Assembly: GCA_030648435.1 (NCBI GenBank)
Contig: JAUSHE010000024.1
Coordinates: forward strand, 1 to 63,698
DNA: 63,698 nucleotides
Direction: 5' to 3'
Source: Candidatus Daviesbacteria bacterium
GTDB taxonomy: Bacteria > Patescibacteriota > Microgenomatia > Daviesbacterales > UBA10151
Shown here: in pieces, positions 6,019 to 50,310 of the stretch
Layout: each line of letters opens with the position of its first letter
Position numbering within the stretch: the first letter of the stretch is position 1
Position numbers and translations under genes: made by a program
Notes under the pieces: model-generated
Told to the model about the DNA's origin: nothing
The model's input: the letters and a program-made list of their open reading frames with translations, nothing else
Databases searched by the model: none

Positions 6019-7190
6019 GTCATTTCTCTAAAATTTTTAAACAAACGGGGTGGCAGATGGCGGGGAAGATTGTCACGTCTGTCTCTACTTTTATTATTCT
6101 CGGACTGGTGGCGAGAAATTATGGCACAAGCGGAACGGGAATTTTTACACTGGCACTAACCTACTTGGCCATATTTTATATGTTGGCGGATTTTGGCTTT
6201 AATGCTCATGTTTTAAAGAAGAGAGACATTGAGTGGAATAAATTACTGGGAGCAAGATTAATTTGGTCCGGGTTATTGGTAATTTTAGCAGTTGGACTAC
6301 TGCCATTTTTGCCGTTTACTACCCCTCTTTTTTCAAGCGCTGTATTATTTGGAGCTTTGGCAATTTTTGGATCTTCTGTTTTTACAACCTGCAATTTAAT
6401 ATTTCAAAAGAAATTGCGGTATGACCTGTCGGTGTTGGCATCAAGCATTGGCACATTAGTGAGTTTGGCAGTTTTTTATTTTCTGGTTTTACAAAAATTA
6501 CCAGTCTCTTTTTTATTACTTGCTCATTTCTTTGGTTGGCTGGTAATAGCTTTATCAGCACTGTTTTTACTTCGTAGACTTATCTTAAAAATAATTCCGA
6601 TATTCGATCTACGATATACGATTAACCTATTCAAGTCTTCCTGGCCCATTGCCGCCACACTTGCCTTAAATGTCATTTATTTCCGGGCTGATTCATTTAT
6701 GATTGCTTATTTCAAAAATGCTGCTGATGTTGGAGTTTACAATATTGCCTACTCTATTTTTCAAACTGCGTTGGTTCTGCCAACATTTATTATGAATGCT
6801 TATTATCCTTTGATGCTTAAATCTCTGGAAAAAATTAAACTTATTGGTTCGGGACTCCTGGGTTTATCCCTGGCAGGTACTATTTTTACAATTATTTTTT
6901 CCCCTATTATGATTCGAATTTTAACCGGAGGGGGATTTGAAGGTTCTGTCCAAAGCCTGCAGATTTTATCCCTAGGGTTTCCTGCCTATTTTTTATCGGC
7001 ACTACTGATGTGGGTTCTGATAACCAGGGGGCAGTACAAAAAAATGCTTATAATTTACACATCCGGGCTCGTTTTTAATTTTGTGCTTAATATAATTTAT
7101 ATACCGCAGTATTCCTATATTGCCGCATCCTGGACAACAGTTATTTCCGAGTACTTGATTTTAATCCTACAAATCCTTATCCTAAGATAA
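6015..7190 (+). CDS. polysaccharide flippase (MOP/Wzx family)
   Basis: 12-14 TM protein, ATGA overlap with the preceding ligase-like gene. Confidence 0.6.
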   Translation: MSHFSKIFKQTGWQMAGKIVTSVSTFIILGLVARNYGTSGTGIFTLALTYLAIFYMLADFGFNAHVLKKRDIEWNKLLGARLIWSGLLVILAVGLLPFLPFTTPLFSSAVLFGALAIFGSSVFTTCNLIFQKKLRYDLSVLASSIGTLVSLAVFYFLVLQKLPVSFLLLAHFFGWLVIALSALFLLRRLILKIIPIFDLRYTINLFKSSWPIAATLALNVIYFRADSFMIAYFKNAADVGVYNIAYSIFQTALVLPTFIMNAYYPLMLKSLEKIKLIGSGLLGLSLAGTIFTIIFSPIMIRILTGGGFEGSVQSLQILSLGFPAYFLSALLMWVLITRGQYKKMLIIYTSGLVFNFVLNIIYIPQYSYIAASWTTVISEYLILILQILILR

Positions 7191-13452: not shown

Positions 13453-14475
13453 TTAAGTTACGAGTGCAAGGTTTGGATCAGCTTGAAGAGACAAAGGATT
13501 TTTAAGGGCTTTTTGGAAAAAGGCTGCAGAGGCTATCATGGCTCCGTTATCTGTACAAAGTTCCGGTGGTGGTACAAAGAGTCTGATAGCTGAAGACTGA
13601 CAGCTGACAGCTAATTCTGAAACCAGTTTCTGATTGGCGGCCACTCCGCCGGCGACTATTAAGTTTTTAACCTGATATTTTTCAACCGCTTGAATACTTT
13701 TTTTAACCAGAACATCAACAATAGCTTGTTGAATTGAAGCAGCAAGGTCAGCGACCTTACTTTTATCTGTTATATTAGCTACTGCTGTTTTTAAACCTGA
13801 AAAAGAGAAGTCAAAATCTTTGGAATTTATCATTGGTCTGGGTAATTTAAAAGCTTTTGGGTTACCCTCTTGTGCTAGTTTGGAAATAATAGGACCACCA
13901 GGGTAGGGCAGTCCCAGGAGCCTGGCGCATTTATCAAAGCATTCTCCTGCCGCATCATCCCGGGTTCCGCCCAGATATTTATATTTACCATGATCTGTAA
14001 ACAGAACTAAATCCGTATGCCCACCGGAAACAAGCAGGCCAATACAAGGGAAGCTCGGTACACCTTCCAGGTGGGCTTTGACTCCTGGAAGGTGAGTGGG
14101 AGTAATCCAATTAGCATAAAAATGTCCAAGCAGGTGATTAACTGGGATTAGTGGTTTATTCCAGATTAATGCCAGGGTTTTGGCAGTTTCTACCCCCACT
14201 AAAAGTGAACCTATTAGTCCGGGTCCATAGGTGACTGCAATAGCGTCAATTTCCTGTTGCCTGTGGCCTGAAGCCTGTAAACTTTCTTCTATCACCGGAA
14301 TGATTGATTTTATCTGTTCCCGTGCCGCCTGTTCAGGAATTATCCCTCCGTATTTAGCCTGCAGCAAGGCTGATGAAGCCACAATATTGGATAATATCGT
14401 TATTCGTTTATCGTTATTCGTCAAGATAGCGCAAGCTGTTTCATCGCAGGATGTTTCTATTCCCAGAATAATCAT
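13453..14475 (-). CDS. tsaD: tRNA N6-adenosine threonylcarbamoyltransferase TsaD
   Basis: GIETSCDETA, GPGLIGSLLVG, LLVSGGHT, CTDNGAMIA. Confidence 0.95.
   Translation of the reverse strand: MIILGIETSCDETACAILTNNDKRITILSNIVASSALLQAKYGGIIPEQAAREQIKSIIPVIEESLQASGHRQQEIDAIAVTYGPGLIGSLLVGVETAKTLALIWNKPLIPVNHLLGHFYANWITPTHLPGVKAHLEGVPSFPCIGLLVSGGHTDLVLFTDHGKYKYLGGTRDDAAGECFDKCARLLGLPYPGGPIISKLAQEGNPKAFKLPRPMINSKDFDFSFSGLKTAVANITDKSKVADLAASIQQAIVDVLVKKSIQAVEKYQVKNLIVAGGVAANQKLVSELAVSCQSSAIRLFVPPPELCTDNGAMIASAAFFQKALKNPLSLQADPNLALVT
13583..13617. repeat. heptamer patch (5 units) inside tsaD
   Basis: CTGATAG CTGAAGA CTGACAG CTGACAG CTAATTC. Confidence 0.6.
14061..14094. repeat. family-A 34-nt perfect hairpin element, copy 1 (inside tsaD)
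   Basis: CACCTTCCAGG TGGGCTTTGACT CCTGGAAGGTG; 11-bp stem, 12-nt loop. Confidence 0.9.
14395..14422. repeat. heptamer/14-mer patch inside the tsaD 5' region
   Basis: TATCGTT ATTCGTT TATCGTT ATTCGTC. Shares the 10-mer TCGTTTATCG with 18645-18654 and the reverse complement of 18752-18761. Confidence 0.6.
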
Positions 14476-14545: not shown

Positions 14546-14587
14546 ATATAGCAGATATACAATTTGGCATATATCAAGGAGAAAGAT

Positions 14588-14863
14588 ATGCAAACAACGC
14601 AAGACAGAGTGCAAAAACTAGTAACATTTTCCCCAAAACTATATAACAGTGCCGTAGCCAGAGCCAATAGCCTGGGTATTCCCTTTGCTGAATATGTCAG
14701 ACATACACTTGTTAAAGATGTTGAGGAAGGCAATAAAAACTTGCCAATGGTTGATGCCGAAACAGAGAAAAGAATTGGTCAAAGTCTCAAAGATCTTGAA
14801 GAGGGACGATACACAATCATCAGGAATAAAAAAGAACTAAGCGCTCACTTGGGTAGACTCTAA
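14588..14863 (+). CDS. ribbon-helix-helix (CopG/Arc-type) antitoxin
   Basis: RHH-like KLVTFSPKLYNSAVARANSLGIPFAEYVRHTLV. Start trimmed to the SD-preceded ATG. 8 nt upstream of the toxin gene. Confidence 0.65.
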   Translation: MQTTQDRVQKLVTFSPKLYNSAVARANSLGIPFAEYVRHTLVKDVEEGNKNLPMVDAETEKRIGQSLKDLEEGRYTIIRNKKELSAHLGRL

Positions 14864-14871
14864 GAGTTGCT

Positions 14872-15162
14872 ATGTTTACACTTGTTTTTACAAAGCATTT
14901 TGATGAAACATACGCTTTAAATACCAAAGAAAATAAAGAGATAGAAAAGAAAATCAGAAAAGCGTTACATTTCTTAGAACAAAATCCGTCTTATCCATCT
15001 CTTAAAACACATAAAGTTACAACAAAAAACTACGGAGAAAAATGGAGTAGCGGGGTAACAGGAGATATTCGTATTATTTGGGATTATGACAGCGAAGGTA
15101 GATCAATCATTCTTCTTTTGGATATTGGTGGCCATAGCGGAACTCACAAAGTATATAAATAA
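14872..15162 (+). CDS. RelE/ParE-superfamily toxin
   Basis: Typical C-terminal pattern GDIRIIWDYD...IILLLDIGGHSGTHKVY. Confidence 0.65.
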   Translation: MFTLVFTKHFDETYALNTKENKEIEKKIRKALHFLEQNPSYPSLKTHKVTTKNYGEKWSSGVTGDIRIIWDYDSEGRSIILLLDIGGHSGTHKVYK

Positions 15163-15164
15163 CT

Positions 15165-16004
15165 ATGATCCCTAAGCAAAAACATGAATTTATTAAAGAC
15201 GCTTTGTGGGTTTCTTATACGGCTTTAAAAGATTTTTTGAAGTGTCCCCGAAGTTATTATTTAAAAAATATCTACAAAGACCCAAAGACCGGTTTTAGAC
15301 TGCAGATTGCCTCGCCCTATTTAACTTTAGGGTCAACCGTACATGACAGCGTCAAATGGTATTTGGATATGCAGGGCCAGGTTACAAGCGGGCAGCTAAT
15401 ACAAAAATACCGTAATTTTTGGCTTAAATATAGGGGCAAAAAAGGCGGATTTAGCTCTTTGGAAGAAGAGGCAACTTTTGGCAAAAGGGGCCTGAAGATG
15501 CTGGATAATTTCTTAGATAATGCAAAAGTATTGGAGAAAACTGCGCCGCCGGTAACTTTTCCTAAGTATAATTTAGTGGAGGATGTGATATTAATCGGTA
15601 ACTTTGATTTTGTGGGGGAGATGCCGGGGGGGACTTTGCATATTGTGGATTTTAAAACTGGGGCAAATGACGAAGAAGATACTCTGCAGCTTTATATTTA
15701 TGCCATACTCGCAGAGGCAAACTTAAGTAAACCGGTATCCAAAGCCTCGTTTTGGTATTTAGATAGGGAAGATGCGCCGAGGGAGATTGTTTTGGATGCT
15801 TTAGAACCCAAGCTGGATTGGTTAAGAGAGAAGGCTTTGGAACTTAAAAAAGCCATTAAAGGAGGGAACTGGGTTTGTATTAAAGGGGATCAGCTTTGTC
15901 GGGACTGTAAGGATTACCAGGCTATCATTGATGGTAAAGGGCAGTTCCAGTTCTCTGATTACCGCTATAAAAAGGATATTTATTATCTATCTAAATCCGC
16001 TTAA
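15165..16004 (+). CDS. Cas4/RecB-like PD-(D/E)XK nuclease with Fe-S cysteines
   Basis: N-terminal Cys (FLKCPRSYYL), D...DFKTG (IGNFDFVGE...LHIVDFKTG), QLYIYAIL, C-terminal CIKGDQLCRDC. Confidence 0.7.
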   Translation: MIPKQKHEFIKDALWVSYTALKDFLKCPRSYYLKNIYKDPKTGFRLQIASPYLTLGSTVHDSVKWYLDMQGQVTSGQLIQKYRNFWLKYRGKKGGFSSLEEEATFGKRGLKMLDNFLDNAKVLEKTAPPVTFPKYNLVEDVILIGNFDFVGEMPGGTLHIVDFKTGANDEEDTLQLYIYAILAEANLSKPVSKASFWYLDREDAPREIVLDALEPKLDWLREKALELKKAIKGGNWVCIKGDQLCRDCKDYQAIIDGKGQFQFSDYRYKKDIYYLSKSA

Positions 16005-16010
16005 TTTCTG

Positions 16011-17267
16011 TCAAGTTCCTTCATGCCAGGAGGCTAAATACTTTTTTTGTTCCTCAGTTAAAGTATCTATGGAAATGCCCAAGGATTTAAGTTTTAACTG
16101 GGCAATCATATCATCTAACTCCTTTGGCACAGTATAAACACCTGGTTTTAGTTTGCCTTTATTTTTCACCAGAAACTCTGCTGCCAAAGCCTGGTTGGCA
16201 AAGGACATATCCATGACATCAGGCGGATGACCTTCTGCTGAGGCTAAGTTAATCAGCCTGCCTTCACCTAAAACAAAGATCTTTTTGTTATCCTCCAAAG
16301 TTATTTCTTCCAGATTATCCCGCAGGGTTCTTCTATTTTTGGCAATCTTGATTAGGCCTTCATAGTCAAATTCCACATTAAAGTGTCCTGTATTGGCTAC
16401 AATCGCGCCATTTTTCATTTTTTGAAAATGAGCAACAGATATAACTGTTTTATTACCGGTGGCAGTACAGATTATATCGGCAATTTTGACTGCCTGGTCT
16501 ATGGGCATAACATCAAACCCGTCCATGGTAGCTTCCAAAGCCTTGAGCGGGTTTACTTCTGTGACTATCACTAAAGATCCCATGCCCCTAGCCCGCTGAG
16601 CCAAGCCCCTGCCGCACCAGCCATATCCTACTACCACGAATTTTTTTCCTGCCAAAAGTACATTAGTAGCTCTGATTATTCCGTCAATGGTGGATTGGCC
16701 TGTGCCGTATCTATTGTCAAACATATGCTTGGTAGGCGAATCATTGACTGCCATCACCGGAATTTTGAGTGTCCCGTCTTTTAACATGGCCCGAAGCCGG
16801 ATAACCCCTGTGGTTGTTTCCTCTGATGAGCCGATTACGTCTTTAAGCTGGGAGACTTTTTCTGTGTGGAGTAAAGTGACCAGGTCTGCCCCGTCATCCA
16901 TGGTGATTTGCGGGTGAAAATCCATGACAGTGTTGAGGTGTTTATAATATGTATCTTTATCTTCGCCGCGGATAGCAAAAGTGGGGATCCCAAAATCTTC
17001 TATCAGGGAGGCAGCCACATCGTCCTGGGTGGAGAGAGGGTTAGAGGCACAAAGAGCCAAATTTGCTCCCCCTGCTTTTAAGGTAGTCATAAGATTGGCA
17101 GTTTCAGAGGTGACATGTAAACAAGCTCCGAGGGTAATTCCTTCAAGCGGTTTTTCTATGGCAAAACGTCTCTTAATTAGTTCCAAAACTTTCATTTGGG
17201 AACCTGCCCATTCAATTTTTAATTTGCCCTTAGGTGCCAAATTTTTATCCTTAATATCAGATTTCAT
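16011..17267 (-). CDS. ahcY: adenosylhomocysteinase
   Basis: [17 protein letters not shown] site [18 protein letters not shown]. Confidence 0.95.
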
Positions 17268-18193
17268 ACTTTTAGTTCTTCTCCAAAATTTTCCTTATAT
17301 CTTTTACAAAAACCTTCAACAGTAAAAGTGTGACTAGTTGTACCATATTTTTCAACGGCGTAGCAAGCAGCAGCCGACCCCATTTGTCCGCATGTTTTTA
17401 GGTCTAAACTCTTTAAAAAGCCGGTCAAAAATCCGGCTCGATAAGCATCACCCGCACCCGTCGGGTCAACCGCTTGGATTACTTTTCCGGCATTAATTTG
17501 TAGATTTTGATCTTTAGTTTGTATCGTTGATCCCTTTTCTCCCAAAGTAGTGATTAAAATTCCAACATTTTCCAATAGTTTGTCACTTGTTTCTTGTATC
17601 TTGTCTCTTAATAGCGCTATCTCATAATCATTACCAATTAAAATATCTGCATCTTTTACCATATTTTTTAAATCATCAGAACTGAGTGAGGGTAGCTGCA
17701 TGCCAGGGTCAAGCATATACTTAATGCTTTTATCCTGACATTGTTTGGTAAATTTAACCATGGCCTCAGGGTTATTGGGGGAGATAACTGCCAAATCAGT
17801 TTTAATATTATCCAGTGATAAAGAAGGAGCTTCATTCATGGCTCCCGGATGAAAAGCTGTGATCTGGTTATCAGCTTTATCAGTCATAATGTAAGCGGAA
17901 GAGGTAGAATCCTCAGAGATTTTGATTTGAGAGGTATCTACACCTGCTTGTTGTAAAAACTTCCCATATTCTGAAAAATCAGGGCCGGCAATCCCTAAAA
18001 TTGCCACCGGATTTTTTAACAGGGCTAAATTATAGGCAATGTTGCCGGCAGTACCGCCTCTTTGTTTTTTTAAGGTATTTACCAAAAAAGAGAGGTTTAT
18101 CTGGTGGATTTTATCCGGCATGATATGGTCTGCAAAAAGACCGGGAAAGTCCATAATATGATCAAAAGCCAAAGATCCTGTAACTGTTATCAT
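17264..18193 (-). CDS. PfkB-family kinase, probably adenosine kinase
   Basis: [10 protein letters not shown] and [17 protein letters not shown] overlap with ahcY. Start trimmed to MITVTGS; the upstream 18 codons are heptamer-repeat read-through. Confidence 0.75.
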
Positions 18194-18201
18194 TTTAAAT
18201 C

Positions 18202-18232
18202 TAGTATATCGTATATGGTTTATCGTGTATCG
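18202..18232. repeat. left direct repeat flanking the four-helix-bundle gene
   Basis: TAGTATATCGTATATGGTTTATCGTGTATCG; 28/31 identical to 18624-18654. Built of ATCG-type heptamers. Confidence 0.85.
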
Positions 18233-18256
18233 TAAAGAGCGAATCAACCCTACTTA

Positions 18257-18616
18257 TCATTTATCGGATTTCAAGAATTTTTTATATGATCGTATTTTAC
18301 GAATTATTTTTTCAGCTTCTTCATAGAGTTGATTCCGGATAGTTTCATCTAAATAATTTAGCTCAAATGCTATCTGTGTTTCTGAAGTAGTTTCAAGAGC
18401 TGATTTAATTGCAATATCTAAATAATGCAGTTTATCATTAAGGCTACTAGCTCCCGAACCCTCTGCAATATTAGCTGAGACTGATACAGCAGCTCTACGT
18501 AGCTGATTAGTTAGTCCGTAAATTTCAGACTTTGGAAATTTATCAGTTACTTTATAAACAGTACGAGCGTATTCTATAGCGAGTTTCCAAATATCGAGTG
18601 ATTCGTAAGCGAACAT
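18257..18616 (-). CDS. four-helix-bundle protein (23S rRNA IVS / S23 / Avd-like family)
   Basis: Signature FPKSEIYGLTNQLRRAAVSVSANIAEG. Start trimmed to MFAYESLDIWK. Confidence 0.8.
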   Translation of the reverse strand: MFAYESLDIWKLAIEYARTVYKVTDKFPKSEIYGLTNQLRRAAVSVSANIAEGSGASSLNDKLHYLDIAIKSALETTSETQIAFELNYLDETIRNQLYEEAEKIIRKIRSYKKFLKSDK

Positions 18617-18623
18617 CAAATAA

Positions 18624-18654
18624 TAGTATATCGTATATTGATTATCGTTTATCG
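18624..18654. repeat. right direct repeat flanking the four-helix-bundle gene
   Basis: TAGTATATCGTATATTGATTATCGTTTATCG. Confidence 0.85.
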
Positions 18655-18696
18655 GGTAATGAAAATGTAGCAATCCAATATTCGAAAAATGAAATG

Positions 18697-18762
18697 TTAC
18701 GATGTGCGATTTACAATTTACGATATTCGATATACGAAGAACGAAGTATTACGATAAACGAT
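18697..18762. repeat. degenerate heptamer array (about 9 units, NNNCGAW)
   Basis: TTACGAT GTGCGAT TTACAAT TTACGAT ATTCGAT ATACGAA GAACGAA (gta) TTACGAT AAACGAT. Confidence 0.8.
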
Positions 18763-20483
18763 TATTGTGTTCCTACCAGATATACTGCCTGCCAGGGTTT
18801 ATAGGCAGATCTCCAGGTTTCATTGATTAAAGTTTCACCACCTCTGGTAACTGTTCTTCTAAATGAAACAGTTGCTCCCCAGGCTGCCCAGTCCACTTGT
18901 TTAACTGTACCTTTTGGTAAGGTTGGGTCATCTTGCCTAAGTTCCGGAGGCGGAGGAGTTTGATTGCTTACTACTGGCTTACTTAAAGATACAGTCCTGC
19001 CATCAGAGGTACCATAGAGATCAACATATAGAGTGATTCCTGAGGTATAGGCCTGGATTAAAATATGGGCTGAGGTATCATTTTTAAACTTAAAATCCAC
19101 ACTTGGGTAAAAAACAGTGGCATCCAGCCCCGGAGGAAAGCCCTGCTCATAATAACCTACCCTGTAGGCATGGGCGGTTCTCGCCACCACCGGCAGTCCG
19201 GCATTTAACACTGCCCTAAATAAAGTAGTGGAATCCTGGCAAACACCGCCTCCGTCATCTAAAACAGTCCTGCCTTCTTTAATCACATATGCTTGTTTAT
19301 AACCGGTGGCTGCAGACACGTCACCGATGGTTTGATTAAAAGAGAATATCTCTCCCGGCGGGACCAGTACTCCGTTAATTCTTGAAGCAGTAAGCACTAC
19401 GTTGTAAATTCTATTGGGGATCGAACCGGCAAAATTGGAAATACCCTGGCCCAGCAGCTCTTTGATTCCTAAGGAATTTACATCAGATGTTAATATTTTT
19501 GGTTTAATAATCTCAACCGGTAAAGGAATAGTTTTAGAAGAAGGATTAGTTAGTGTATCAGAGATAAGATCAATGGTTTTTTGGACGTCTAATTTCTGGC
19601 CATCCCGGGACGGTTTAAAAGCCGCCACTCTTTTAGTTTGAGGATTAAATTCAAATAAACCTTCCTGGACATCCTGATCTATTCCGGAGGCAATATTTTT
19701 TAAATAAGCTATAGTTTGGTCTTCATCCAGAAGTAAACCCTCTCCTTTAGTTAAATCAAGTAAAGTCAGTAGTTGTTTGGTATCCAAAACCCAGGTATTT
19801 TCACTAAAAGTCAATTTAATGGGTTCTTTAGTAATAGCTTCCAAAGCTGCTTTGGCACGCACTACAAAAGCAGTGGTTATTTTGGGTGGGGCAATTTTTA
19901 GAGATAACCAACGGTTATATTTGCCGGTTAAAAGATAGTCTGCAATTTGGCTTTTGACGGCCTCTTTATCAAGCATTAATCCGTCTACTCCCTCTTTGAT
20001 CTGAATTCTGGCTGATCCGGTACTTTCATCAAAAAAAAGCTGGGCATTTTCAGGTTGTCTGTTTACGGTAGAGGCTATTTTTTCCAGTTGCTTATCTAAA
20101 GATAGGCTCACCTTTGGGCGGATATTTGATTTGGAAAAAAAAGTGGAAAACCCTCTGTGGCTATTATCAAAATCTGCAGTGATAGCAGAATAATCTAATG
20201 CAGCAGAAGCAGTGGCTAGATCCAAAGCCATAGAGTCCTGGGCGTAGTCAAAGGATATTTTTTGACCGGCTCTTTGTTGAAAAGTTGACTCCACAGCTCT
20301 GATGGCTTGGCCACGGGTTAAAAAAGAAATGTTAATGCTGCCAACAAATGTGAGCGGGTAATATTTATCCAACATTATTACTTGATAAGTCACACCGAGT
20401 AATATCAACAGCAATATTGATAAAATAATTGGCAATAAAGCAAGTTTGTTGCTTCGCAATAAAGCAAGTTTGTTGCTTCGCAA
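18762..20483 (-). CDS. VanW-family protein with N-terminal TM anchor
   Basis: GGGVCQDSTTLFRAVLNAGLP VanW motif. Start uncertain: the ORF track gives 20573, but TTG at 20483 or 20459 avoids overlap with the divergent gene. Confidence 0.75.
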   Translation of the reverse strand: MRSNKLALLRSNKLALLPIILSILLLILLGVTYQVIMLDKYYPLTFVGSINISFLTRGQAIRAVESTFQQRAGQKISFDYAQDSMALDLATASAALDYSAITADFDNSHRGFSTFFSKSNIRPKVSLSLDKQLEKIASTVNRQPENAQLFFDESTGSARIQIKEGVDGLMLDKEAVKSQIADYLLTGKYNRWLSLKIAPPKITTAFVVRAKAALEAITKEPIKLTFSENTWVLDTKQLLTLLDLTKGEGLLLDEDQTIAYLKNIASGIDQDVQEGLFEFNPQTKRVAAFKPSRDGQKLDVQKTIDLISDTLTNPSSKTIPLPVEIIKPKILTSDVNSLGIKELLGQGISNFAGSIPNRIYNVVLTASRINGVLVPPGEIFSFNQTIGDVSAATGYKQAYVIKEGRTVLDDGGGVCQDSTTLFRAVLNAGLPVVARTAHAYRVGYYEQGFPPGLDATVFYPSVDFKFKNDTSAHILIQAYTSGITLYVDLYGTSDGRTVSLSKPVVSNQTPPPPELRQDDPTLPKGTVKQVDWAAWGATVSFRRTVTRGGETLINETWRSAYKPWQAVYLVGTQ

Positions 20484-20487
20484 TAAA
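20432..20487. repeat. 24-bp perfect tandem repeat x2.3
   Basis: GCAATAAAGCAAGTTTGTTGCTTC twice, then GCAATAAA. Each unit contains the AAGCAA/TTGCTT inverted repeat. Confidence 0.9.
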
Positions 20488-20535
20488 TCTCTTTTCTTCT
20501 TCGCTTTGGCCACGGTGGTATTGTACAATACTATC

Positions 20536-21843
20536 GTGAAGAAAATAATAATTATTGCTTTAAGTTTGGCCATTGTTTTAGGATTTATTTTTTGGAAGTT
20601 CGGACCTAATATCTCTTTCTTTAATAAACCTAAAGTTTCGGGACCAATAATTTTAACTTATTGGGGGCTGTGGGAGGATGATAATTTGATAAAGCCCGTA
20701 TTGGCCGAGTATCAAAAACTGCATCCTAATATCATTATTAATTATGAGCGTAAATCTTCTGTAAATTATAGAACCCGCGTCCAAACTCAAATTCGGGAAG
20801 GTGTGGGACCGGATATTTTCAGGATTCATAATTCCTGGTTGCCAATGTTTACATCAGAACTTGCTTCTTCTCCTGAGGATGTGTTTACGAGCGCAGATTT
20901 TAAAAGTATGTTTTATCCGGTCGCTGCCGATAGTTTTATTAAAGGAAGTCAAATTTACGGTGCGCCAATGGAAGTGGATGGGCTGGCGCTTTTCTATAAC
21001 GAAGATATGTTAAATGCAATTGGTGGTAAACCTCCCAAAAACTGGCAGGAATTCATAGATTTGGCCACAAAAATGACGGTCAAAGATGCGACAGGCATCA
21101 AAACAGCAGGCGCGGCAATGGGTACTGCCGGCAATGTTGACCATTGGTCTGATATCCTGGGACTTTTAATGCTGCAGCAGCCAAGTGTTGATGTAAGTAA
21201 TGTTGCCAGTCCGCAAATGGTGGAAGTGCTGCGGTTTTATACCGGTTTTGTAATAGATCCAAAGAAAAAAACATGGGACGCAAATTTACCGAAATCAACG
21301 GATATGTTTGCCCAAGGCAGGTTGGGATTTTATTTCGCTCCCTCCTGGCGGGCTCATGAATTACGTGTGGCAAACCCAAATTTAAAATTTAAAGTTACAC
21401 CGGTGCCGCAACTTTCCGGTAAGATTGTTAGTTGGGCCAGTTTCTGGGGAGAAGTGGTTTCTGCAAAATCAAAGAATCCCGCTGAAGCCTGGAAGTTTGT
21501 TAAATTTTTGACTTCTGCGGAAACTGAAAAATTACTCTTTCAGCAAGCTTCACAAGTCAGGCTGTTTGGTGAGCCATATTCACAAAAGAGCTTAGCTGGG
21601 GAACTGGTACAGGATCCTATCGTAGGGGCATTTGTCGCCCAGGGACCTGGTTATAAATTCTGGTATTTAGCATCGAATACTTTTGATAACGGGATAAACG
21701 ATGAAATGATTAAATATTTCGAAGACGGGATTAATGCAACACTGGCCGGAACCGATCCGGCAATGGCTCTGCAGACAGTTGATAAAGGCGTAAAACAGGT
21801 TTTGGATAAATATACCAGACCTCAATCGGTTAGTTCACCGTAA
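20536..21843 (+). CDS. extracellular solute-binding protein (ABC transporter, family 1, sugar-type)
   Basis: Signal/TM VKKIIIIALSLAIVLGF from GTG 20536. Periplasmic-binding-protein-like body. Confidence 0.7.
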   Translation: MKKIIIIALSLAIVLGFIFWKFGPNISFFNKPKVSGPIILTYWGLWEDDNLIKPVLAEYQKLHPNIIINYERKSSVNYRTRVQTQIREGVGPDIFRIHNSWLPMFTSELASSPEDVFTSADFKSMFYPVAADSFIKGSQIYGAPMEVDGLALFYNEDMLNAIGGKPPKNWQEFIDLATKMTVKDATGIKTAGAAMGTAGNVDHWSDILGLLMLQQPSVDVSNVASPQMVEVLRFYTGFVIDPKKKTWDANLPKSTDMFAQGRLGFYFAPSWRAHELRVANPNLKFKVTPVPQLSGKIVSWASFWGEVVSAKSKNPAEAWKFVKFLTSAETEKLLFQQASQVRLFGEPYSQKSLAGELVQDPIVGAFVAQGPGYKFWYLASNTFDNGINDEMIKYFEDGINATLAGTDPAMALQTVDKGVKQVLDKYTRPQSVSSP

Positions 21844-41147: not shown

Positions 41148-42170
41148 TTATTTCCCAAGCAACTTTAACAGAAAAATCTTAAGCGGGGTTAATTTATCTA
41201 TAGCAGTAAAAGTTAGATACACTGGCCAGTTAAATACTAAATCATAAGTTCCGATATATTCTACTAATTTTCCGCCATAACCCAGTTTAAATTTATGAAA
41301 CCCATACCAGGAGTCTTTTGCATCAGCATCCGGTCCCAGCGCTCCCCACATATCAAACTTTTTTAATCCCATTTTTTTGCCTAATTTTATTGCTTCCCAG
41401 GCTGTTAAATTATTTGCCATAACTTCAGAATGGGTTTTAGAAGAGCCGCCATAAGGATAGTAGAGTGTATCTTTGAAATTTAACAGCATCCAGGCGGTAA
41501 GAGGTTCATGGTTATTAGTTCGTGGTTCGTAGTAAGCAATAAGAAGACGCGCCATGCCGGCATCCCGAAGTGTCTTCCAAACTTTGCGGTGATAGTTTTT
41601 ATTGTGTCCATGGTAACCTTGTCTTTTTGTAGTTTCAAAATATAATTTTAAATAGATTTCAAAGGCTTCGTCATCAACTCTTTCTTCTGTTTTCACTCCA
41701 TGCTTTTGAGCAACTTTAATGTTATATCTTGTTTTCGGATGCATATTTTTTAACAAATCTTCCTCTGATTTTGTTAAATCCAGGACAAAGTTATATTTGG
41801 TAAAAAGGGGTTTAGGCGAGGGATGAAAGTCTGACGGTAGACGGTAGACGGTAGACGGTAGACAAATATCCGGTTCTAACTTAATAAACGCGCAATGATT
41901 TTCTTTGCCGATTTTTATTAAGGCTTCAGCTAGTTCTTTATCAGGCTTTGGTCCTTTTGGTAAGTAGCCGACATATTGATTAACAAATGGGATTTTATGC
42001 AAAGTTAACTGAAACGCTTTTGTTAATTGATTATTTTTGTATAATCCATATCGTAAAACCTGGGTGCCTAGGCACCTTCTAAACTTTCCCCACTCAAAAG
42101 ATTGAATCACATGAGTGACTAATTTATTGTATTGAGATTGCTGATTATTCGTAATTGGCCGTAAGTCCAT
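41148..42170 (-). CDS. FemAB-family peptidoglycan bridge-forming aminoacyltransferase
   Basis: FemAB-like LQSFEWGKF..., TLYYPYGGSS, FDMWGA. Confidence 0.75.
   Translation of the reverse strand: MDLRPITNNQQSQYNKLVTHVIQSFEWGKFRRCLGTQVLRYGLYKNNQLTKAFQLTLHKIPFVNQYVGYLPKGPKPDKELAEALIKIGKENHCAFIKLEPDICLPSTVYRLPSDFHPSPKPLFTKYNFVLDLTKSEEDLLKNMHPKTRYNIKVAQKHGVKTEERVDDEAFEIYLKLYFETTKRQGYHGHNKNYHRKVWKTLRDAGMARLLIAYYEPRTNNHEPLTAWMLLNFKDTLYYPYGGSSKTHSEVMANNLTAWEAIKLGKKMGLKKFDMWGALGPDADAKDSWYGFHKFKLGYGGKLVEYIGTYDLVFNWPVYLTFTAIDKLTPLKIFLLKLLGK
41503..41537. repeat. heptamer patch inside the femAB-like gene
   Basis: GGTTCAT GGTTATT AGTTCGT GGTTCGT AGTAAGC. Confidence 0.55.
41831..41865. repeat. near-perfect heptamer tandem repeat inside the femAB-like gene
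   Basis: CTGACGG TAGACGG TAGACGG TAGACGG TAGACAA, translated LPSTVYRLPS. Confidence 0.9.
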
Positions 42171-44262: not shown

Positions 44263-46080
44263 CTAATTTAGCCAATCCTTGTCATCTTTGTAAGCAGTAT
44301 TACTTGTCACCAATTCCTGGGGAATATCTGCTAAAAATCTGGAAACCAAATTATTACTTCTGGTACCAAAGTACAATCTTTGTCTGGCATAAGTCAAAAA
44401 AAGTTTAATCTTTGCTCTGGTAATTCCGACATAACATAATCTTCTTTCTTCTTCCAGTTCGTTAACATCCAGCATGGCCCTGGAATGCGGGAATAAACCT
44501 TCTTCCATGCCAACCATAAACACAACGGGAAACTCTAGTCCTTTTGCAGAATGTAAAGTCATTAGAGTAACTGCATCCTGTGGTTCGCGTTTTTGGCCGC
44601 GCATACTGCCACTTTCGACCAGAGCGACATTTTCTAAAAAGTCTATTAAATTTGGAAATTCTTCTGCAACCGAACGGAGTTCTTTGACATTTTCAACCCG
44701 CATTTTGCCTTCTTCGCTCCTGTCGTCAAGATAAGCCAAATAATCTGTCCGGGCGAGAATCAAATCCAGTAGATCCATGGTTAGATATTTATCCTGTTGT
44801 AAGGATACTTCCTGATAAAGCCCCATAATCTTAAGAAGGCGACCTTTGCCGATTTTTTCAGCCCGTTTTAGAGAAACCGAATCTTTGGGGTTTTGTAATA
44901 ATCTTAGGTACGAAAGGACATCTTTAATTTCTTTTCTTTGATAGAAACTAACACCGCCAATTAATTTATAAGGAATACCGGATTTTAAAAATTGTTCCTC
45001 TAAGGACCTTGATTGGGCATTAGTTCTGAAAAGAACGGCAAAATCAGAAAAAGGTTTGCTGATTTTTGAGAGAATTAATAAAGCTTCTTCTATTTCATTT
45101 CCGACTTCTGTAATTTCTATTTTTTCACCGCTTTCTTTTTCTGTCCAGAGTTTTAAAACGGGGTGAGATTTGTTTTTGGAAATAACGGCATGAGCCGTAT
45201 CTAAAATATTTTGAGTAGAACGGTAATTTTGTTCCAAATTAAAAACTTTTGTTCCGGGATAATCTTTTTGGAAATTTACTATATTTCTAAAATCAGCTCC
45301 CCTGAAGGAATATATCGATTGGCTGGCATCGCCCACAACGCAGATATTTTTATGACGGTTGCTTAAGTATTTTGAAATTAAGTATTGAGCGGGGTTAGTA
45401 TCCTGGTATTCGTCTATTAAAATATATCGGTACTGAATCTGATAACGGGTTAAAATGGCAGGTTCCCTTTGAAATAATTTAATAACATATAAAAGCAGGT
45501 CGTCAAAATCCAGAGCATGATTATGCTCCAAAATCTTTTGATATTCTATATAAATTTTGGCAACGATTTCCTGAAAATAACCCCGAGCATATTGGGGATA
45601 TTCCAGTGAAGAAATGAGCTCGTTTTTAGCGCCTGATATAGTAGCCCTGACGGAGTAAGGTTTGGTTTTTTCTGTGGGGATATTAAGATTTGCCATAGCT
45701 TCTTTGATAGCATCTAAGGAGTCTCCCTCATCATAAATTGCAAACCCGGGAGGCAAACCTAAAACTTTTCCCTCACGGCGGAGGATTTTGGCACAAAATG
45801 AATGGAAAGTTCCCATCATAGGAGTAGTTGGTAGTTTGTAGTTTGTAGTTTGTAGTAATTTGTTAATCCGCTCTATCATTTCACCGGCTGCTTTATTTGT
45901 AAAGGTCAGACAAAGGATATTTTCCGGCAGAATACTTTTTTCTTTAATCAGGTAAGCTACTTTATAAGTCAAAACCCGGGTTTTTCCGGAACCGGCCCCA
46001 GCTAAAATTAAGGTCGGACCTTCAGTTACCTGAACAGCTTTTTGCTGTGTGGGATTTAGATCATCTAAAAGAGGGGGCAT
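44263..46080 (-). CDS. pcrA: UvrD/PcrA-family DNA helicase (short)
   Basis: AGAGSGKTRVL, IDEYQDTN, TLHSAKGLEF, CYVGITRAK. Confidence 0.85.
   Translation of the reverse strand: MPPLLDDLNPTQQKAVQVTEGPTLILAGAGSGKTRVLTYKVAYLIKEKSILPENILCLTFTNKAAGEMIERINKLLQTTNYKLPTTPMMGTFHSFCAKILRREGKVLGLPPGFAIYDEGDSLDAIKEAMANLNIPTEKTKPYSVRATISGAKNELISSLEYPQYARGYFQEIVAKIYIEYQKILEHNHALDFDDLLLYVIKLFQREPAILTRYQIQYRYILIDEYQDTNPAQYLISKYLSNRHKNICVVGDASQSIYSFRGADFRNIVNFQKDYPGTKVFNLEQNYRSTQNILDTAHAVISKNKSHPVLKLWTEKESGEKIEITEVGNEIEEALLILSKISKPFSDFAVLFRTNAQSRSLEEQFLKSGIPYKLIGGVSFYQRKEIKDVLSYLRLLQNPKDSVSLKRAEKIGKGRLLKIMGLYQEVSLQQDKYLTMDLLDLILARTDYLAYLDDRSEEGKMRVENVKELRSVAEEFPNLIDFLENVALVESGSMRGQKREPQDAVTLMTLHSAKGLEFPVVFMVGMEEGLFPHSRAMLDVNELEEERRLCYVGITRAKIKLFLTYARQRLYFGTRSNNLVSRFLADIPQELVTSNTAYKDDKDWLN
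45824..45858. repeat. heptamer tandem patch inside pcrA/uvrD
   Basis: GTAGTTG GTAGTTT GTAGTTT GTAGTTT GTAGTAA, translated (minus strand) TTNYKLPTT. Confidence 0.9.
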
Positions 46081-49664: not shown

Positions 49665-50310
49665 AGCTGCTTCTAGAATTAAGCTTCTAGAATTAAAACA
49701 GAAATTTTCCGCCAAAGGCGGACCATCCTTTGGATGGAATCCTAATAATATAGTGGTTCTTGAAGAAGGGACTGATTTGAAAATCATTAAAGAAACCTTA
49801 AGTGCGCAATCGCTTTTTTCGGATGAACAGTTAATTATTCTGGAAAACCCTCCTGAAGACTTTTTTGACTATGAACTACGAACTGTGAACTATGAACTAA
49901 TATTGTGGTTTGATCATAAAGTCGACCCAAAGGACTGGCATGGTTTTGAAGAGTTATTTTTTCCTGAGAGCAAAGAAGTTTCGGTCTTTCCGTTTTTAGA
50001 TTTATTGGCAGCTAAAGATACAAAAGCGTATTTGGAGTTTTATAAATTAAAAAATGCAGGTTTTGATATTTACTACTTATTAACAATGATTTTTTATCTA
50101 CTGAGGTCTTTGGCGGTAACGCCTAAAAAAGCTCCTGATTTTGTAAAAAAGAAATTAGACAGACAAAGAGCAAATTTTTCTAAAGAAAAAATAACCGACC
50201 TTTATAAAAATATGCTGGAAATTGATTTTAAAATCAAATCAGGTTTTCTGGAAAAGGATCATGCAGAATTTTTACTGGTTAATAAGTTTATTGGGAGCCT
50301 AGGGTTTTGA
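49633..50310 (+). CDS. holA: DNA polymerase III delta-subunit-like protein (short)
   Basis: N-terminal LLLHGP and C-terminal LEIDFKIKSG resemble HolA. Weak call. Confidence 0.4.
   Translation: MKPLLLHGPAKAASRIKLLELKQKFSAKGGPSFGWNPNNIVVLEEGTDLKIIKETLSAQSLFSDEQLIILENPPEDFFDYELRTVNYELILWFDHKVDPKDWHGFEELFFPESKEVSVFPFLDLLAAKDTKAYLEFYKLKNAGFDIYYLLTMIFYLLRSLAVTPKKAPDFVKKKLDRQRANFSKEKITDLYKNMLEIDFKIKSGFLEKDHAEFLLVNKFIGSLGF
49869..49903. repeat. heptamer patch inside the holA-like gene
   Basis: CTATGAA CTACGAA CTGTGAA CTATGAA CTAATAT, translated YELRTVNYEL. Confidence 0.85.

Follow-up and report, generated by a model that had tools for sequence, protein, structure and literature searches.

The DNA analysed here (the window; 63,698 nt, the forward strand of contig JAUSHE010000024.1, positions 1 to 63,698, of a Candidatus Daviesbacteria bacterium) contains at 18194-18761 a 568-bp insertion cassette, which lies exactly in the stop/start junction of two co-oriented minus-strand genes. 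The upstream host gene (18762-20573, minus strand, 603 aa, stop codon TAA at 18764-18762) encodes a VanW-domain protein with matches to PF04294 (E 3e-44) and PG_binding_4, and its orthologs adjoin the kinase gene in relatives. The downstream host gene (17264-18193, minus strand, 309 aa) encodes a PfkB-family kinase (PF00294, E 1e-45), the start of which was fixed at the ATG at 18193 by alignment with relatives. The kinase is followed by ahcY (16011-17267, AdoHcyase match). Between the arms of the cassette, the sole ORF is a four-helix-bundle (4HB) gene of 119 aa (18257-18616, minus strand).

In the direction of transcription, the cassette opens with arm A (18696-18761, minus strand), which consists of about 9.5 units of the heptamer NTATCGT starting from the first base past the VanW stop codon, and within which tandem-repeat calling (TRF) located an array at 18698-18737. 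A non-repetitive spacer of 41 nt (18655-18695, minus strand) forms the loop between arm A and copy B (18624-18654, minus strand), the latter comprising 4.4 ACGATAN units oriented like those of the downstream arm and including a -10-like TATACT at 18630-18625. Downstream of the 4HB gene lies arm B′ (18202-18240, minus strand), which is inverted in respect to arm A and is composed of the repeat at 18202-18232 and a conserved lead-in, GCTCTTTA; its TATACT is at 18208-18203. Copies B and B′ end 7 and 8 nt 5′ of an ATG, that of the 4HB gene (18616) and that of the PfkB kinase (18193), respectively.

The product of the gene at 18616-18257 had originally been assigned to the 4HB family and described as carrying a signature motif, which is present in the 119-aa sequence. 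The assignment was borne out by PF05635 (E 3.9e-33, 114.3 bits in reference to a cut-off of 33.8, model positions 1-105 of 106 covered) and by TIGR02436 (E 1.4e-31, 109 bits, cut-off 24). Homologues in the PDB were 2GSC (XCC0516, E 1.3e-17), which is a pentameric four-helix-bundle protein deposited with five chains, and 2RLD (E 4e-4). The accompanying statement that neither rRNA nor reverse transcriptase (RT) is encoded nearby was correct and applies more widely, as no Rfam family reached its threshold anywhere in the window, and the RVT_1 profile returned no match in the whole genome (92.6% complete). The arms produced no credible match to a known RNA family in Rfam even at E ≤1, and no transposase or recombinase gene was present inside the element.

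The original prediction described the locus as a gene bracketed by 31-bp direct repeats at 18202-18232 and 18624-18654, and the repeats were confirmed as 28/31 identical, 422 bp apart from start to start, and enclosing only the 119-codon gene. In first-order Markov simulations of the window (n=20), the best 31-nt matches at offsets of ≤1000 reached 22-24/31 and never ≥28, and the observed match is beyond chance. It is the only array-type pair of such quality within the window. A search for further copies, suggested together with the prediction, gave no third copy upon BLAST of either repeat against the 784-kb genome, the next best match being 18/20. Each 31-nt copy is a tandem array of ca. 4.4 units of the heptamer ACGATAN; B and B′ share a terminal TATACTA, and arm A, the third and longer array (18696-18761, directly 3′ of the VanW stop codon), is made of the reverse-complement heptamer and is the reverse complement of both B and B′. 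The direct repeats are two of three heptamer arrays framing the 4HB gene, and not a transposon footprint; the defining pair is that of the inverted arms, upstream A with downstream B′.

The VanW-kinase junction was read in the relatives after locating the kinase gene in 24/41 related genomes. Empty sites, for which the original prediction recommended a search, were present in two genomes of the same genus (G016 and G008), in which the VanW stop codon abuts the kinase start as TAAATG (…AATAAATGATT…) with neither a 4HB gene nor an array. The cassette was found at the same site in a genome of the sister genus (G024), with a 4HB protein of 80% aa identity, an upstream arm of the NTATCGT type only which includes a GC-rich hairpin, a downstream arm nearly identical to B′, and no copy B. 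It was also found at this site in a Candidatus Daviesbacteria MAG (L026; 4HB 88% aa identity), where an upstream arm corresponding to the outer half of A is followed by no more than the proximal ca. 18 nt of B. Two further genomes (G007 and G014) had no 4HB gene and retained a degenerate B′-like stretch directly before the kinase ATG, and the remaining relatives had unrelated inserts at the junction or a VanW gene that does not adjoin the kinase. A 72%-identical 4HB relative with related arms was located directly after ahcY in G015, that is, in a different junction of the same operon.

As no copy of the repeated sequence is present at the empty sites, the repeat is not a target-site duplication. 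The states of the junction in the relatives indicate that the site is polymorphic and that the direct repeat of 31 bp is an elaboration, at this locus, of a cassette with inverted arms. The outer half of arm A (18728-18761) is common to the Daviesbacteria ortholog, and the inner half (18696-18727) occurs only in this genome. The inner half, the spacer and the distal part of B make up a segment of ca. 86 nt (18642-18727), which is missing from the Daviesbacteria ortholog, is unique in the genome, and lies at the apex of a small hairpin. No second copy of this block was found in the genome or in the fetched loci, and the idea of a dispersed miniature element was abandoned. Copy B is a younger, lineage-specific second copy of the start-codon-proximal part of B′, placed before the ATG of the cassette itself, where, together with the inner half of arm A, it also closes a hairpin. 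In the kinase+AhcY tree, G024 and the Daviesbacteria MAG are sister to the genus and this genome is placed near the base of the genus, which would favour an old presence of the cassette followed by losses, with a later gain as the alternative.

Comparison of the 4HB gene with its two orthologs gave dN/dS values of 0.060/1.49 (ratio 0.04) and 0.124/1.21 (0.10), when for VanW, kinase and AhcY dN was near 0.2 and dS 1.7-3.0. The 4HB protein is under strong purifying selection, and the comparison with its neighbours indicates that it is functional and more constrained than these housekeeping products. The cassette at the VanW-kinase site is old; recent horizontal transfer was rejected, as the dS of 1.2-1.5 is only slightly under that of the neighbours. 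In three lineages whose genes have dS >1.2, 36/37 bases of arm B′ and its lead-in (18204-18240) are identical, and the stretch between the 4HB stop codon and arm B′ has diverged. The downstream arm is conserved far more than the flanking genes.

The genome contains nine credible PF05635 genes, found by the search for additional 4HB genes that the original prediction had called for, and period-7 arrays were present near both ends of 9/9 of these paralogs. The heptamer differed at almost every locus and the two sides were usually inverted. One of the paralog cassettes is located between tuf and rpsJ, and two others flank pyrG. Among 40 relatives, the number of PF05635 copies ranged from 0 to 14 per genome. 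When 80 further loci from 24 genomes of the bacterial family were included, a set of 91 distinct cassettes was obtained, with period-7 arrays upstream in 77/91, downstream in 76/91 and on both sides in 71/91. The upstream unit matched the reverse-complemented downstream unit with ≤1 mismatch in 32/71 cassettes, and the downstream unit in direct orientation in only 6/71. In 69/85 cassettes the upstream neighbour was co-oriented with the 4HB gene; from its stop codon to the 4HB start, the gap had a median of 36 nt.

By a stricter score, flanks of the 4HB genes of the family carried a period-7 array in 32/82 cases upstream and 28/82 downstream, as compared to 7/641 and 18/647 for the flanks of control ORFs in this genome, and arrays of any other period were seen on at most one flank per side in the family set. 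With the same score, 25/82 upstream and 28/82 downstream flanks were positive among 82 PF05635 loci from many phyla. We use the term heptamer-armed 4HB cassette for this working class, which is not in print. The element at the VanW-kinase junction has a PF05635 gene, inverted period-7 arrays on both sides and an intergenic location, as the class is defined, and differs from it by an additional, third array that is directly oriented.

The gene and its arms are copied to new junctions as one unit, and the target is not duplicated in the process. Two paralogs (on contigs C12 and C13) were 79% identical over 474 nt, from outer arm edge to outer arm edge, with 41/43 matching bases in their upstream arms. 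Arm 8-mers were shared, even between different sites, in 14/14 pairs (100%) at ≥80% aa identity, in 53% at 60-80% and in 27% at 45-60%, with a background of 15% below this, the sharing for near-identical genes being inflated by the 15-25 nt of coding sequence that the test windows took in. Mapping of the homology boundaries, which is free of this inflation, placed them 20-45 nt upstream of the 4HB start and 15-70 nt downstream of the stop codon. When the cassette sites of the relatives were mapped onto this genome, six distinct sites were filled here too, about 11 were empty and array-free, and one had gene-less arrays of another heptamer. The empty junctions typically consisted of overlapping or abutting stop and start codons (ATGA, TAAATG, TAGATG), and no target duplication was found at the filled sites of filled/empty pairs. 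One junction was occupied by two cassette lineages with different arms in G004 and G017. Of 29 genomes, only this one and G018 had a cassette at the tuf-rpsJ junction, and its divergence equalled that of its flanks; two other genomes had gene-less arrays of a different heptamer at this junction. Neither a recombinase nor another mobility enzyme was identified.

Heptamers dominate the short tandem repeats of the whole genome, with 218 arrays of period 7 against 93 of period 9 and 59 of period 6. The lengths of the period-7 arrays had a sharp mode at 30-33 nt, or ca. 4.5 units, at which 54/203 arrays were found and beyond which very few were longer, when arrays of other periods showed a plain decay with length. 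The 31 bp of the originally predicted repeat correspond to the standard array length. The original prediction had itself anticipated that the repeats might be just two of many random heptamer arrays, with no empty-site evidence and with the gene syntenic in all relatives; the arrays are indeed many, yet they are not random, empty sites do exist, and the gene is not syntenic throughout the relatives. Several genomes of the genus contained many arrays of the AATGTAC type, outside the family there were hardly any, and a few were found in a genome with no PF05635 gene (G003). That gene-less arrays would be the cognates of particular 4HB lineages was not supported, although the negative result is a weak one: over 40 genomes, the AATGTAC arrays did not track the AATGTAC-armed gene. 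Many of the period-7 arrays were located inside long ORFs.

The predicted duplexes of the arms were strong, at -24.7 kcal/mol for A:B′ and -20.4 kcal/mol for A:B, and 0/500 shuffles reached either value. Both the MFE and the centroid fold of the 591-nt transcript paired A with B′ around the 4HB gene, and A paired with B when the upstream part was folded alone; the whole-region fold was not better than that of shuffled sequence (z = -1.3). Over 54 cassettes, pairing of the arms amounted to -22.0 kcal/mol, against -9.9 kcal/mol for shuffled sequence. Arms in which the heptamer units had been permuted paired as well as the actual ones (-23.0 versus -22.0 kcal/mol), which indicates that the precise register of the stem is not what is conserved, and selection of the arms for a precise stem was discarded as an explanation. 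A consensus scan detected no -35/-10 pair of a sigma-70 promoter at either repeat copy, only the -10-like TATACT, and a promoter of this type at the repeats was likewise rejected.

The explanation that we consider probable, with some reserve, is that the locus is an inverted-arm 4HB insertion cassette built like the intervening sequences (IVSs) of 23S rRNA. The reserve stems from the permutation result and from the strict sequence conservation of B′, which are as compatible with a protein-binding array as with an RNA stem. Within this explanation, we hold the classification with high confidence, and put forward the RNA-processing step tentatively. The cassette would be transcribed together with the host operon, and the inverted arms would pair (at about -25 to -31 kcal/mol), with the 4HB frame looped out between them, in the manner of the terminal stem of an ORF-bearing 23S IVS. 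RNase III genes are present in the genome, and the enzyme may cut the stem and so uncouple the two host cistrons, after which each ATG would keep a very short leader. The array beside each ATG would then constitute its start context, either through the -10-like TATACT or as a binding site for a factor, for which the 4HB pentamer is a conceivable candidate. This working model, the most likely one, follows that worked out for ORF-bearing 23S rRNA IVSs, the only relatives so far studied.

That the arrays instead bind a factor which recognizes their sequence, possibly the 4HB pentamer, seems to us rather unlikely. B and B′ would in that case be one operator set before two start codons, the 4HB gene and kinase/ahcY would be controlled together, and the inverted upstream array would serve as a third site or as a pairing competitor. 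Such a role is consistent with the equal distance of B and B′ from an ATG, with the conservation of B′ in its actual sequence (36/37) and not by covariation, with the irrelevance of unit order to pairing, and with a 30-33 nt mode that equals five core copies when the 2GSC homologue was deposited as five chains. On the other hand, genomes that lack a matching armed 4HB gene have abundant gene-less arrays of one family, such arrays being present even in G003, and the kinase of cassette-free relatives has no such array, so that the kinase itself needs none; we also know of no binding data in the 4HB family outside the Avd protein of diversity-generating retroelements (DGRs), and count this against the proposal. 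Still less probable is the more specific view that 4HB pentamers are sequence-specific readers to which arrays of ~31-33 nt offer five 7-nt-spaced cores, one for each of the five subunits. If it were true, the gene-less arrays would be sites for RNA/DNA processing or translation control by the 4HB family, the 23S rRNA IVSs would be the special case that was seen first, and B and B′ would put the 4HB gene and kinase/ahcY under one reader.

The arms might also be portable DNA homology, with recombination, gene conversion or replication slippage between arrays of one heptamer family accounting for the spread or loss of cassettes, and with copy B derived from an unequal exchange between arrays. 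The observed lack of both an enzyme and target duplication, the end of homology at the outer arm edges, the arrays of 30-33 nt of the same families scattered over the genome, the ~86-nt block at a hairpin apex by which the upstream regions of the orthologs differ, and the existence of single-arm remnants all point in this direction. We nevertheless judge this improbable as the overall explanation, as it covers movement but not the strong conservation of the protein and of arm B′. Moreover, two lineages with different arms share one junction in G004 and G017, and the orthologous empty junctions here are array-free in about 11 cases against one with arrays of a different heptamer, which indicates that pre-existing landing pads are not the rule; landing of cassettes in pre-existing hairpins of the same heptamer was accordingly dropped. 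In the original prediction, the locus was viewed as a discrete insertion between the VanW gene and the kinase, of which the direct repeats were the footprint or the recombination sites. The former part is supported by the empty TAAATG sites and by the 0 to 14 PF05635 copies per genome. The latter, i.e. a target-site duplication or recombination sites of an inserted element, would agree with repeats that bracket just the gene and form the best local repeat in the window, but we find it very improbable, since the empty sites are without any copy of the 31-mer, the upstream copy is absent in G024 and partial in the Daviesbacteria ortholog, other filled/empty pairs show no duplication, and the arms are inverted family-wide (32/71 inverted, 6/71 direct). 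Finally, the 4HB gene could in principle be a DGR remnant, an Avd gene that has lost the RT and the template and variable repeats. The Avd family binds nucleic acid and an RT, and the cassette protein has the same four-helix-bundle fold with distant sequence similarity, matching the Avd equivalog model NF033474 weakly (E 1e-4). The match of 22.5 bits is, however, far under the model cut-off of 80, the genome (92.6% complete) has no RT, flanking heptamer arrays are not a DGR feature, and the nine paralogs share one non-DGR architecture, which leaves this origin with a negligible probability.

Returning to the probable IVS-like organization, the nearest printed precedent for the cassette is the ORF-bearing 23S rRNA IVS of Coxiella, and a full-text search for literature pairing the PF05635/TIGR02436 family names with heptamers retrieved the Coxiella paper only. 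In this bacterium, RNase III excises the IVS, the terminal stem of which is 28 bp long, and the start codon of S23p is preceded by heptamers in tandem, namely three copies of GACAGAT (PMC4990558). The ORF-bearing 23S IVSs of Coxiella burnetii and Leptospira resemble the cassette in having the same protein family as the sole ORF and a length of 400-600 nt (PMC4990558). Further likenesses are terminal inverted sequences able to enclose the ORF in a stem, tandem heptamers just before the ATG in numbers that vary between strains, and a location inside a transcription unit without a mobility gene. The two differ in that the IVS occupies a helix of 23S rRNA and the cassette a stop/start junction of protein-coding genes (VanW and PfkB kinase), and in that both cassette arms are wholly heptamer arrays. 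Whereas the cassette gene is under strong purifying selection, the ORF of Coxiella is reported to be in decay and probably unexpressed (Warrier et al. 2016, PMC4990558). Cleavage by RNase III has been shown for the 23S IVS, and for the cassette it is suggested by analogy. Being outside rRNA and in a window with no Rfam family, the cassette is not a 23S IVS proper; neither is it a DGR, a transposon with target duplication, or an integron cassette. With REP/REPIN elements and their RAYT genes, and with integron attC cassettes, it has in common that small units bounded by hairpin repeats lie between genes, and that gene-less derivatives outnumber gene-bearing ones. Unlike in those systems, no Y1 transposase or integrase gene adjoined the cassettes examined, the 4HB cassettes are not in cassette arrays, and the arms are periodic heptamers in place of a conserved palindrome.

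PF05635/TIGR02436 proteins are very widespread, usually with several copies per genome, and to our knowledge no function has been assigned to them in the decades since their discovery inside rRNA intervening sequences. In this lineage, nearly every 4HB gene forms a package with inverted heptamer arrays, which is acquired and lost where genes of an operon adjoin. This package, together with the conserved protein and arm, offers a concrete candidate ligand for the family, namely the array, as RNA or as DNA. The cyanobacterial STRR is another dispersed heptamer tandem repeat without a known partner. Heptamer repeats of TAACTGA are dispersed in Beggiatoaceae and cyanobacteria (PMC4679880), and heptanucleotide elements of 4x and 5x occur in Geobacter metallireducens (PMC2700814). 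Like the arrays described here, these (PMC4679880, PMC2700814) come in arrays of 2-6, often directly 5′ of start codons, sometimes as hairpins, both between and inside genes, and with function unknown. Neither four-helix-bundle nor S23-type genes are mentioned in PMC4679880 or PMC2700814, and the present genome differs in having many heptamer families within one small genome, framing a specific gene family. The cassettes thereby link three observations printed separately, the 23S rRNA IVSs, the dispersed heptamers of cyanobacteria, Beggiatoaceae and Geobacter, and the multi-copy 4HB genes. For annotation, they account for many of the unusual small genes by which conserved operons of Patescibacteria are interrupted.

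The genome that holds the window (G000) contained two divergent paralogs of the four-helix-bundle (4HB) gene, at C12:30959-31516 and C13:3430-3900, which on the basis of sequence comparison are duplicates of a single cassette, i.e. of a 4HB gene together with its framing heptamer arrays (arms). The two cassettes were 79% identical over 474 nt, in an alignment whose limits coincided with the outer edges of the arms, and their upstream arms matched at 41 of 43 positions, being more conserved than the coding part.

At G000 C22:2529-5308, a cluster of small genes for membrane proteins that look pilin-like on visual inspection is arranged in tandem, with tight junctions and without a cassette. In nine relatives (loci L118, L121, L130, L141, L107, L178, L174, L180 and L179) the same cluster carried 4HB cassettes of differing lineages and arms; the cluster may be an insertion hot spot. 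The tuf-rpsJ junction was occupied by a 4HB cassette in G000 and in the related genome G018, and the tuf-rpsJ spacers of two further relatives, G020 (L210) and G017 (L202), contained GTAGTTN arrays without the gene. In the G020 spacer, an inverted AACTNNN array was present across a terminator and promoter from the GTAGTTN array.

Period-7 arrays of other heptamers were identified in the window at 6598-6622, 13583-13612, 14253-14279, 14395-14421, 41503-41533, 41833-41863, 45824-45856, 49868-49899, 54684-54713 and 56366-56391, including GACGGTA (4.4 copies) and GTAGTTT (4.7 copies). All ten were contained in long ORFs, tsaD among them, and none was intergenic. Genome-wide, array length had a sharp mode at 30-33 nt. 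Apparently in-frame arrays were likewise found in housekeeping genes at G000 C31:6426-6478 and C1:2889-2912; one of these sites was an inverted pair of AGGCAAC and CTACCGC (three copies each) within a putative polA, and the other an AGTGCTA array within a putative pyrG, both genes being assigned by eye. Other local direct repeats of the window (57138-57190/58536-58590, 58565-58620/59554-59610, and 58437/59630) had 27-29 of 31 bases identical, were not heptamer arrays, and probably reflect adjacent paralogous genes.

In the related genome G007, the ortholog of the kinase gene (L021/L025, G007:C16:27321-28243) gave two separate matches, one to residues 1-94 and the other to 94-308, a pattern suggestive of a frameshifted or split gene; this ortholog adjoins the decayed arm remnant, a degenerate stretch before the kinase start codon that lacks the 4HB gene. 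RNase III returned two matches with near-identical scores in G000 (C32:9979-10362 and C5:18141-18530), which reflect either a genuine duplication or the binning together of two strains; the genome is 784 kb in size with an estimated contamination of 3%.

Among the other genes of the window, VanW contained in its 5′-terminal part a 24-bp unit in perfect tandem duplication (20432-20487, 2.3 copies), which yields …LLRSNKLALLRSNKLALL… and also overlaps the start of a divergent solute-binding-protein ORF (20446-21843). Three plus-strand genes were located at 14564-16004 between the minus-strand tsaD and ahcY. Two of these, small ORFs of 99 and 96 amino acids, had no Pfam match and might, as guessed from their size and arrangement, form a toxin-antitoxin pair, and the third encoded a PD-(D/E)XK nuclease (PF12705, E-value 1e-20).
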